Positions 17,574 through 20,187 of a stretch of 64,000 bases of DNA are shown in pieces. Source of the DNA: Escherichia coli (GTDB lineage Bacteria > Pseudomonadota > Gammaproteobacteria > Enterobacterales > Enterobacteriaceae); assembly GCF_048403405.1 (NCBI RefSeq), contig NZ_CP183129.1, one strand, 5' to 3'. The number at the start of each line of letters is the position of its first letter. Positions within the stretch are counted from its first letter, which is position 1. The position numbers were made by a program, and so were the translations under genes. The notes under the pieces are model-generated. The model was not told the DNA's origin. It did no database searches and worked only from the letters and a program-made list of their open reading frames with translations.

Positions 17574-20187
17574 GTATCCTGACCCGGTGGTTGCTTATCC
17601 CGCCGGTCAACGCGCGGCTTATCGGGCGTTATCGCGATTATCGTCGTCATGGCGCGTCGGCTTTCAGCGCGACGCTCGGCTGTTTTTGGTTGATCCTGGC
17701 CTGGATTTTTATTCCGCTGGAGCACCCGCGCTGGCAGCGTATTCGCGCAGAACATAAAAACCTGTATCCGCATATCAACGCCTCGCGTCCGCGTCCGCTG
17801 GATCCGGTCCGTTATCTCATTCAAACATGCTGGTTACTGATCGGTGCATCGCGCAAAGAAACGCCGAAACCGCGCAGGCGGGCATTTTCAGGTCTGCAAA
17901 ATATTCGTGGACGTTACCATCAATGGATGAACGAGCTGCCTGAGCGCGTTAGCCATAAAACACAGCATCTTGATGAGAAAAAGAGCTCGGCCATTTGAGT
18001 GCCGGGGCGCGGCGGTTGATCCTCGGTATCATCGTCACCTTCTCGCTGATTCTGGCGTTAATCTGCGTTACTCAGCCGTTTAACCCGCTGGCGCAGTTTA
18101 TCTTCCTGATGCTGCTGTGGGGGGTAGCGCTGATCGTACGGCGGATGCCGGGGCGCTTCTCGGCGCTAATGTTGATTGTGCTGTCGCTGACCGTTTCTTG
18201 CCGTTATATCTGGTGGCGCTACACCTCTACGCTGAACTGGGACGATCCGGTCAGCCTGGTGTGCGGGCTTATTCTGCTGTTCGCCGAAACGTACGCGTGG
18301 ATTGTGCTGGTGCTCGGCTACTTCCAGGTAGTATGGCCGCTGAATCGTCAGCCGGTGCCATTGCCGAAAGATATGTCGTTGTGGCCGTCGGTGGATATCT
18401 TTGTCCCGACTTACAACGAAGATCTCAACGTGGTGAAAAATACCATTTACGCCTCGCTGGGTATCGACTGGCCGAAAGACAAGCTGAACATCTGGATCCT
18501 TGATGACGGCGGCAGGGAAGAGTTTCGCCAGTTTGCGCAAAACGTGGGGGTGAAATATATCGCCCGTACCACTCATGAACATGCGAAAGCGGGCAACATC
18601 AACAATGCGCTGAAATATGCCAAAGGCGAGTTCGTGTCGATTTTCGACTGCGACCACGTACCAACGCGATCGTTCCTGCAAATGACCATGGGCTGGTTCC
18701 TGAAAGAAAAACAACTGGCGATGATGCAGACGCCGCACCACTTCTTCTCACCGGACCCGTTTGAACGCAACCTGGGACGTTTCCGTAAAACACCGAACGA
18801 AGGCACGCTGTTCTATGGTCTGGTGCAGGATGGCAACGATATGTGGGACGCCACTTTCTTCTGCGGTTCCTGTGCGGTGATTCGCCGTAAGCCGCTGGAT
18901 GAAATTGGCGGCATTGCTGTCGAAACCGTGACTGAAGATGCGCATACTTCTCTGCGTTTGCACCGTCGTGGCTATACCTCCGCGTATATGCGTATTCCGC
19001 AGGCGGCGGGGCTGGCGACCGAAAGTCTGTCGGCGCATATCGGTCAGCGTATTCGCTGGGCGCGCGGGATGGTGCAAATCTTCCGTCTCGATAACCCGCT
19101 CACCGGTAAAGGGCTGAAGTTTGCTCAGCGGCTATGTTACGTCAACGCCATGTTCCACTTCTTGTCGGGCATTCCACGGCTGATCTTCCTGACTGCGCCG
19201 CTGGCGTTCCTGCTGCTTCATGCCTACATCATCTATGCGCCAGCGTTGATGATCGCCCTGTTCGTGCTGCCGCATATGATTCATGCCAGCCTGACCAACT
19301 CGAAGATCCAGGGCAAATATCGCCACTCTTTCTGGAGTGAAATCTACGAAACGGTGCTGGCGTGGTATATCGCACCACCGACGCTGGTGGCGCTGATTAA
19401 CCCGCACAAAGGCAAATTTAACGTTACCGCCAAAGGTGGACTGGTGGAAGAAGAGTACGTCGACTGGGTGATCTCGCGGCCCTACATCTTCCTTGTTCTG
19501 CTCAACCTGGTGGGCGTTGCGGTAGGCATCTGGCGCTACTTCTATGGCCCGCCAACCGAGATGCTCACCGTGGTCGTCAGTATGGTGTGGGTATTCTACA
19601 ACCTGATTGTTCTTGGCGGCGCAGTTGCGGTATCGGTAGAAAGCAAACAGGTGCGCCGATCGCACCGCGTGGAGATGACGATGCCCGCGGCAATTGCCCG
19701 CGAAGATGGTCACCTCTTCTCGTGTACCGTTCAGGATTTCTCCGACGGTGGTTTGGGGATCAAGATCAACGGTCAGGCGCAGATTCTGGAAGGGCAGAAA
19801 GTGAATCTGTTGCTTAAACGCGGTCAGCAGGAATACGTCTTCCCGACCCAGGTGGCGCGCGTGATGGGTAATGAAGTTGGGTTGAAATTAATGCCGCTCA
19901 CCACCCAGCAACATATCGATTTTGTGCAGTGTACGTTTGCCCGTGCGGATACATGGGCGCTCTGGCAGGACAGCTATCCGGAAGATAAGCCGCTGGAAAG
20001 TCTGCTGGATATTCTGAAGCTCGGCTTCCGTGGCTACCGCCATCTGGCGGAGTTTGCGCCTTCTTCGGTGAAGGGCATATTCCGTGTGCTGACTTCTCTG
20101 GTTTCCTGGGTTGTATCGTTTATTCCGCGCCGCCCGGAGCGGAGCGAAACGGCACAACCATCGGATCAGGCTTTGGCTCAACAATGA
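17570..20187 (+). pseudogene. bcsA: Cellulose synthase catalytic subunit BcsA, apparently frameshifted (1-bp loss in an A-run at 17978-17982)
   Basis: ORF 17570..17998 (142 aa, ends DEKKSSAI*) and ORF 17995..20187 (730 aa) are in different frames; adding one A restores ...DEKKELGHLSAGARR... and the expected 872-aa BcsA. Confidence 0.8.

Follow-up and report, generated by a model that had tools for sequence, protein, structure and literature searches.

A one-base deletion in an A tract interrupts the cellulose synthase gene bcsA in an Escherichia coli genome sequence

The cellulose synthase gene bcsA is interrupted in the 64,000-nucleotide stretch of Escherichia coli DNA that we analysed (the window; contig NZ_CP183129.1). 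As sequenced, its reading frame is broken by a run of five A bases in place of six, with a stop at codon 143, and the gene is a pseudogene. We consider it probable that the deletion is genuine, recent and private to this strain, and that a pseudogene is what the strain now carries.

Positions 17972-17998 read GAT GAG AAA AAG AGC TCG GCC ATT TGA on the plus strand, the A5 tract lying at 17978-17982; in all close relatives the tract is A6 and supplies codons K137-K138 (AAA AAA). The 5' fragment of bcsA is an ATG-initiated ORF of 142 aa (17570-17998, plus strand), composed of 138 native codons followed by SSAI out of frame and a TGA. This premature stop at codon 143 (17996-17998, plus strand) is made by the frameshift and overlaps a TTG (17995-17997) that encodes Leu145 in the native frame. 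The 3' remainder (17983-20187, plus strand) continues in another frame with native E139-Q872, comprising all transmembrane helices, the GT2 and PilZ domains and the C-terminus. It contains an ORF of 730 aa that starts at the TTG (17995-20187), and gene callers used on public contigs give products of 730 aa or 680 aa for this part of the gene. The initial annotation had described the two ORFs as adjoining in different frames; their coordinates were confirmed, and they are neighbours with a 4-nt overlap.

Addition of one A in silico gave ...HLDEKKELGHLSAGARR... and a continuous BcsA of 872 aa, the length that had been predicted for the repaired protein. Residues 1-872 aligned end to end with the E. 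coli BcsA structures 9fmv (9fmv_A), 9b8v (9b8v_E) and 7lby (7lby_A), each with E = 0. Pfam matches on the repaired protein were Glycos_transf_2 (277-447), Glyco_tranf_2_3 (273-500), Cellulose_synt (446-664) and PilZ (694-790). The frame is lost at codon 139, upstream of all membrane helices, of GT2 (273-500) and of PilZ (694-790), so that every catalytic and regulatory element comes after the frameshift; the earlier placement of the lesion ahead of the glycosyltransferase domain therefore stands. Apart from the A run, the bcsA DNA is the same as that of strain MS 69-1, whose gene is annotated by PGAP (WP_000025849.1). The break departs from what is otherwise a conserved gene and is not a chance pattern. 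A truncating bcsA frameshift of this kind, which removes residues 139-872, is of the genotype scored by Nhu et al. 2024 across the bcs genes, bcsA being one of nine (PMC10881479).

All that the 5' fragment encodes is the N-terminal domain specific to enterobacteria, together with most of the interface helix. Verma et al. 2024 (PMC11379886) showed that the approximately 140 additional residues at the N-terminus of enterobacterial BcsA make up a cytosolic domain to which a BcsG trimer is recruited. For this recruitment residues 1-94 suffice, and the Rhodobacter enzyme, which has no such domain, is active (PMC11379886). Rhodobacter BcsA aligned to the repaired protein from residue 155 onward, which places the frameshift where the N-terminal domain meets the conserved core.

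The surrounding locus has the context expected of an E. coli-type (type II) Bcs system, with the operon order bcsRQABZC and a divergent bcsEFG. On the plus strand, bcsR (16621-16809), bcsB (20198-22537), bcsZ (22544-23650) and bcsC (23632-27105) are intact and the same as the annotated MS 69-1 genes, and this is also true of bcsG (12914-14593), bcsF (14590-14781) and bcsE (14778-16349) on the minus strand. The bcsQ gene (16821-17573, plus strand, 250 aa) is likewise intact and the same as in MS 69-1; its codon 6 is TTG (Leu), as against TAG in K-12 W3110 (PMC7397504). These comparisons agree with the initial annotation, which had taken all other bcs genes to be full length and bcsQ to be free of the K-12 nonsense codon.

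Six RefSeq complete genomes (MS 69-1, TUM1226, OX030728, GN02461, TUM14771 and 4621) are essentially identical to the window over positions 14000-30000. All six have A6 at the bcsA site, and A5 is thus a 1-bp deletion private to the window sequence. Comparison with bcsA of related strains had been proposed as a check on the frameshift, and the near-identical genomes support its description as the loss of one base from the A run. Relative to MS 69-1, the window has approximately five SNPs in 64 kb, two of them within the first 44 kb. SNPs lie at 11409, 39303 and 61977, with one more at 47771, which may be an alignment artefact at the IS1 junction. The other differences are the bcsA A-run indel, an IS1 in gadX and a 2-bp deletion in gadW. 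We looked for clone-mates carrying A5 by exact-product searches with the 142-, 680- and 730-aa fragments and then with a 120-nt marker of the window lineage, and found none: the marker matched 0 of the 32 public contigs that cover it and have A5 or an otherwise N-terminally disrupted bcsA. Neither the six sisters nor the public A5 contigs gave any sign of clonal inheritance or expansion after the bcsA mutation.

Two of the sisters, both blood isolates, have bcs changes of their own. In strain 4621, bcsA has lost its frame independently (GGGGG to GGGG at nt ~978) and is called 'frameshifted' by PGAP; in GN02461, bcsQ is 42 bp longer through an in-frame insertion and encodes 264 aa. The occurrence of both changes in the same seven-member clade suggests that the bcs operon has been hit repeatedly in this lineage.

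The only 100% match to a 101-nt query came from strain Ch1, but the window is not Ch1 itself: the two are ~1.6% divergent over 38 kb, and bcsB and bcsZ are additionally damaged in Ch1. Import of the A5 allele by recombination was also considered; a Ch1-like donor would have to have contributed a tract shorter than ~880 bp containing no other SNP. We rejected this route, de novo slippage being simpler. Replication slippage in the A6 tract (K137-K138) would be the most likely source of the 1-bp deletion.

The two gad lesions are also private to the window. A complete IS1 of 768 bp (47004-47771), with insA (47441-47716) and insB (47019-47522) on the minus strand, interrupts gadX at codons 14-16, between the two copies of a 9-bp target duplication, CAAGACATA (46995-47003 and 47772-47780). 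MS 69-1 lacks this IS1. The exact gadX::IS1 configuration was found in none of the complete genomes, and IS1 lies beside gadX or gadW in 52 of them. In gadW, a 2-bp deletion at 49180 changes GTCACCCCCCATG of MS 69-1 to GTCCCCCCATG and splits the gene into ORFs of 94 aa (48928-49212) and 155 aa (49187-49654). The exact 94-aa product was present in two short Logan read-set contigs, SRR22198919 (in which gadX is intact) and ERR11861380; its recovery from two independent read sets shows the gadW lesion to be real. Both gad changes are certainly real private lesions, and together they disrupt the two AraC-type acid-resistance regulators GadX and GadW. Elsewhere in the window, positions 11544-12911 hold three tandem units of ~483 bp, ~97% identical to one another, each with an Ldr-family type I toxin gene. 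This unit is present in two copies in Ch1 and APEC20/16, three in the window and MS 69-1, and four in UTAK-3.

Data from 454, Ion Torrent, PacBio CLR and Nanopore instruments classically err by undercalling a homopolymer by a single base, and, given the complete IS1 in the window, the assembly probably came from long reads or finishing. The bcsA change, in which an A run is one base short and the frame is apparently lost, looks like the undercalls of long-read and pyrosequencing data. It is possible, though less likely than a genuine deletion, that we are dealing with a sequencing or assembly artefact, the DNA truly having A6 and an intact bcsA and one A having been lost by undercalling or incomplete polishing. 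The privacy of A5, with A6 in six sisters and no clone-mate carrying A5, would also fit such an error. The behaviour of the remaining homopolymers weighs on the other side. When runs of at least six bases were compared between the window and MS 69-1, 73 of 74 agreed over the 64 kb, the bcsA A run being the sole discrepancy, and among runs of at least seven bases 0 of 17 differed. Basecalling errors concentrate in these longer homopolymers (at least seven bases). The clean remaining runs argue against a grossly error-prone assembly, and in this the window is unlike undercall-ridden assemblies, where errors in other, longer homopolymers accompany such a deletion. A single residual error would nevertheless be compatible with these clean runs. 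Moreover, a single random error would fall in bcsA, a gene with a high rate of loss, just ~1-4% of the time, and the other private differences of the window (the IS1, the 2-bp deletion and the SNPs) look like real mutations.

The A5 allele itself is rare in finished genomes. Using haplotype-specific 44-nt queries, which were able to seed solely across the A5 tract, we found it in 3 of 5,426 RefSeq complete E. coli genomes (Ch1, UTAK-3 and APEC20/16), the site being A6 in 5,423. The three carriers have different flanking haplotypes, and PGAP calls bcsA 'frameshifted' in each. The exact 142-aa product was found on 32 contigs in a collection of 15 billion proteins, and further A5 contigs have other flanks; with all public data combined, A5 occurs on at least four haplotype backgrounds. 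The three complete genomes carry additional lesions: in Ch1, bcsB has an internal stop and bcsZ is frameshifted; there is a frameshift in bcsE in UTAK-3 and, outside the bcs locus, a frameshift in yhjJ in APEC20/16.

These carriers bear on the question of an artefact in both directions. Many public A5 carriers are long-read assemblies full of errors. The A6 to A5 change was seen in at least six contigs rich in homopolymer deletions, one of which has about ten homopolymer deletions or frameshifts in 18 kb and encodes the same 142-aa product, and it is often paired with a G6 to G5 change within the same bcsA. The recurrence of A5 in such error-riddled assemblies shows that the site is demonstrably hit by sequencing error, in line with an artefact in the window. 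APEC20/16, with its frameshifted yhjJ, is from the same submitter as Ch1, so that a shared error-prone pipeline is possible. On the other hand, all pseudogenes in the 30-40 kb examined in Ch1 and UTAK-3 fall in the bcs locus, as would be expected of operon decay and not of random error. The bcsA A6 site is thus one at which real mutations arise and at which sequencing errors are also frequent.

Other variants of this part of bcsA were observed in public contigs. The first A of the same run is substituted to give K137* (AAA to TAA) in three contigs (at ~3982 in L035), strain KTE41 included. A run of six G bases (18117-18122, plus strand), intact in the window, has G5, G6 and G7 variants at the equivalent position, and W183* (TGG to TGA) arises in the same run in one contig (at ~5970). 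A further contig has a 147-bp in-frame deletion in bcsA between two GCCGGGGCGC direct repeats, whose window equivalents are at ~18001 and ~18148.

A genuine deletion is the reading that we prefer, and several lines of evidence argue for it. The gadX::IS1 insertion and the 2-bp gadW deletion are private disruptions that homopolymer error cannot give, and other bcs lesions are present in the clade (bcsA in 4621, bcsQ in GN02461). Inactivating bcsA mutations also cluster in this region, namely K137*, W183* and the G deletion of ST95, in which cellulose was restored by repair. The gene is a documented hotspot for loss of function, sporadic bcsA truncation being on record for almost all common E. 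coli sequence types. Finally, strains with 'truncated bcsA only' make up 1-3% of the strains of phylogroup D sequence types in Enterobase assemblies (PMC10881479). With this base rate of 1-3% for bcsA truncation and 10-100 residual errors per genome, discounted for the clean window, a rough Bayesian estimate for a real deletion came to about 0.5-0.7.

The kind of lesion and the A5 allele itself are already known from the literature and public data. In the survey by Nhu et al. 2024, 74 of 76 common E. coli sequence types included strains with truncated bcs genes, a case of convergent inactivation (PMC10881479). The commonest of their lesions is deletion of a G at nt 556 of bcsA, in a G6 run, with a stop at codon 186; it abolishes cellulose, and its repair brought back the rdar morphotype (PMC10881479). 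This is the lesion of ST95 clade 8 (O45:K1:H7 and O1:K1:H7; MS7163, S88 and ATCC 11775), in which one G is lost from the tract at 18117-18122. It resembles the window lesion closely: the same gene and the same N-terminal third are affected, one base is lost from a six-base homopolymer, the two sites are 140 bp apart and the other bcs genes are largely intact. The two differ in the tract and the position of the stop (G6 and codon 186 in ST95, A6 and codon 143 here). In addition, the ST95 lesion is clonal, being carried by 218 of 232 clade 8 strains, and is tied to a virulence phenotype, whereas the apparent lesion in the window is private to one sequence.

The K-12 mutation in bcsQ (codon 6, TTG to TAG) is likewise a one-nucleotide lesion of bcsRQABZC that leaves the strain cellulose-negative with the other bcs genes intact. 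It is a substitution in bcsQ whose effect comes largely from the missing BcsQ and from polarity on bcsA, in contrast to the deletion in bcsA itself seen here. The K-12 nonsense codon has been repaired in strain AR3110. Losses of the cellulose machinery in Shigella (with truncated bcsA in S. sonnei and S. flexneri) and in invasive Salmonella have been read as pathoadaptive (PMC10881479). Those losses are lineage-wide and usually involve decay of several genes, while in the window bcsA alone is affected, in one sequence.

We also considered whether bcsA might be a reversible or leaky switch instead of a dead gene, which we judge very improbable. In one form of this reading, the A6 and G6 tracts would be slippage-prone ON/OFF elements resembling phase variation. 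The presence of A5 on at least four haplotypes and of the nearby G6 run as G5, G6 and G7 would be in keeping with this. In contingency loci, however, the tract is typically at least seven to eight bases long, and its ON and OFF lengths are both common in populations. Tracts of 5-6 bases are short by this standard, and no more than 3 of 5,426 complete genomes have A5. The bcsA tract thus does not have the properties of a phase-variable locus, and sporadic mutation or error would also account for the recurrence of A5 on four or more haplotypes.

In a second form, -1 ribosomal slippage on G_AAA_AAG would restore the native ...DEKKELGH...; read off the sequence, a shift at AAG regenerates exactly the wild-type protein. 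In having AAA AAG, on which a -1 shift restores the frame, the mutant is like the -1 frameshift sites of the dnaX and IS type (A_AAA_AAG). It is unlike them in that its first base is G, so that it is not a true X_XXZ_ZZN heptamer, in having neither a Shine-Dalgarno stimulator nor a downstream structure, and in its lack of conservation. No RNA structure was detected downstream of the slip site (fold z = +1.09). With the motif G_AAA_AAG, no stimulator and an arrangement that is not conserved, the site does not qualify as a programmed -1 frameshift. For Z_ZZN motifs that have no stimulator the shift rate is ~0.15%, the background being 0.11% (PMC4066793). We therefore rejected -1 slippage as a significant rescue, given the motif, the missing stimulator and a rate of this order.

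In a third form, ribosomes would reinitiate at the TTG that overlaps the stop (UUGA) and produce a 730-aa core that lacks the BcsG-recruiting domain and would make unmodified cellulose. Two observations are compatible with this: the frameshift falls at the junction of the enterobacterial N-terminal domain and the Rhodobacter-homologous core, and the N-terminal domain binds BcsG on its own while the Rhodobacter enzyme is active without it (PMC11379886). The Shine-Dalgarno complementarity of the TTG at 17995 was -2.7 kcal/mol, compared with a window mean of -2.2. This is background level, and the TTG was rejected as a dedicated reinitiation site. Furthermore, the analogous ST95 frameshift is fully cellulose-negative (PMC10881479), which speaks against leaky or reversible expression in general. 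The weak slippage motif and the background-level Shine-Dalgarno complementarity make both escape routes unlikely to matter for bcsA. We regard as very improbable the proposals that BcsA is split at a domain boundary into a 142-aa BcsG-binding domain and a reinitiated 730-aa core, or that the tracts are recurrent reversible switches. If BcsA were split in this way, the strain would make little cellulose, or cellulose without the phosphoethanolamine modification.

Returning to a genuine deletion, translation would end at codon 143 and the N-terminal domain alone would be made, a product that has lost the membrane channel, the GT2 catalytic domain and the PilZ domain, which binds c-di-GMP. No (phosphoethanolamine) cellulose would then be made by the strain, even with bcsQ and the rest of the Bcs components intact. 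The premature stop precedes bcsB, bcsZ and bcsC, whose expression might be lowered by polarity, an effect that we regard as possible. We infer both that the base is truly absent and that the strain is cellulose-negative; if the base is missing, this phenotype would be expected by analogy with the ST95 frameshift at codon 186. The initial annotation had proposed that the strain lost cellulose by a lesion different from that of K-12. The anatomy of the lesion and the intact bcsQ are as described there, which supports the proposal in part; the loss of cellulose would be the consequence of a genuine deletion. The caveat of a sequencing artefact that accompanied the proposal stands, since sequence on its own does not tell a real deletion from a homopolymer undercall.

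If real, the allele is an ordinary loss-of-function allele and a further example of the way in which cellulose production has been lost time and again in E. coli, Shigella and Salmonella. It would add one more independent event to an established convergence and opens no new question. Because the A6 and G6 tracts both mutate and are miscalled, surveys of 'truncated bcsA' need read-level confirmation. For the strain itself, a real deletion would mean curli without cellulose and a changed biofilm architecture, which matters for biofilm or virulence work with it. It might also mean more inflammation and greater invasiveness, as described by Nhu et al. 2024 (PMC10881479).
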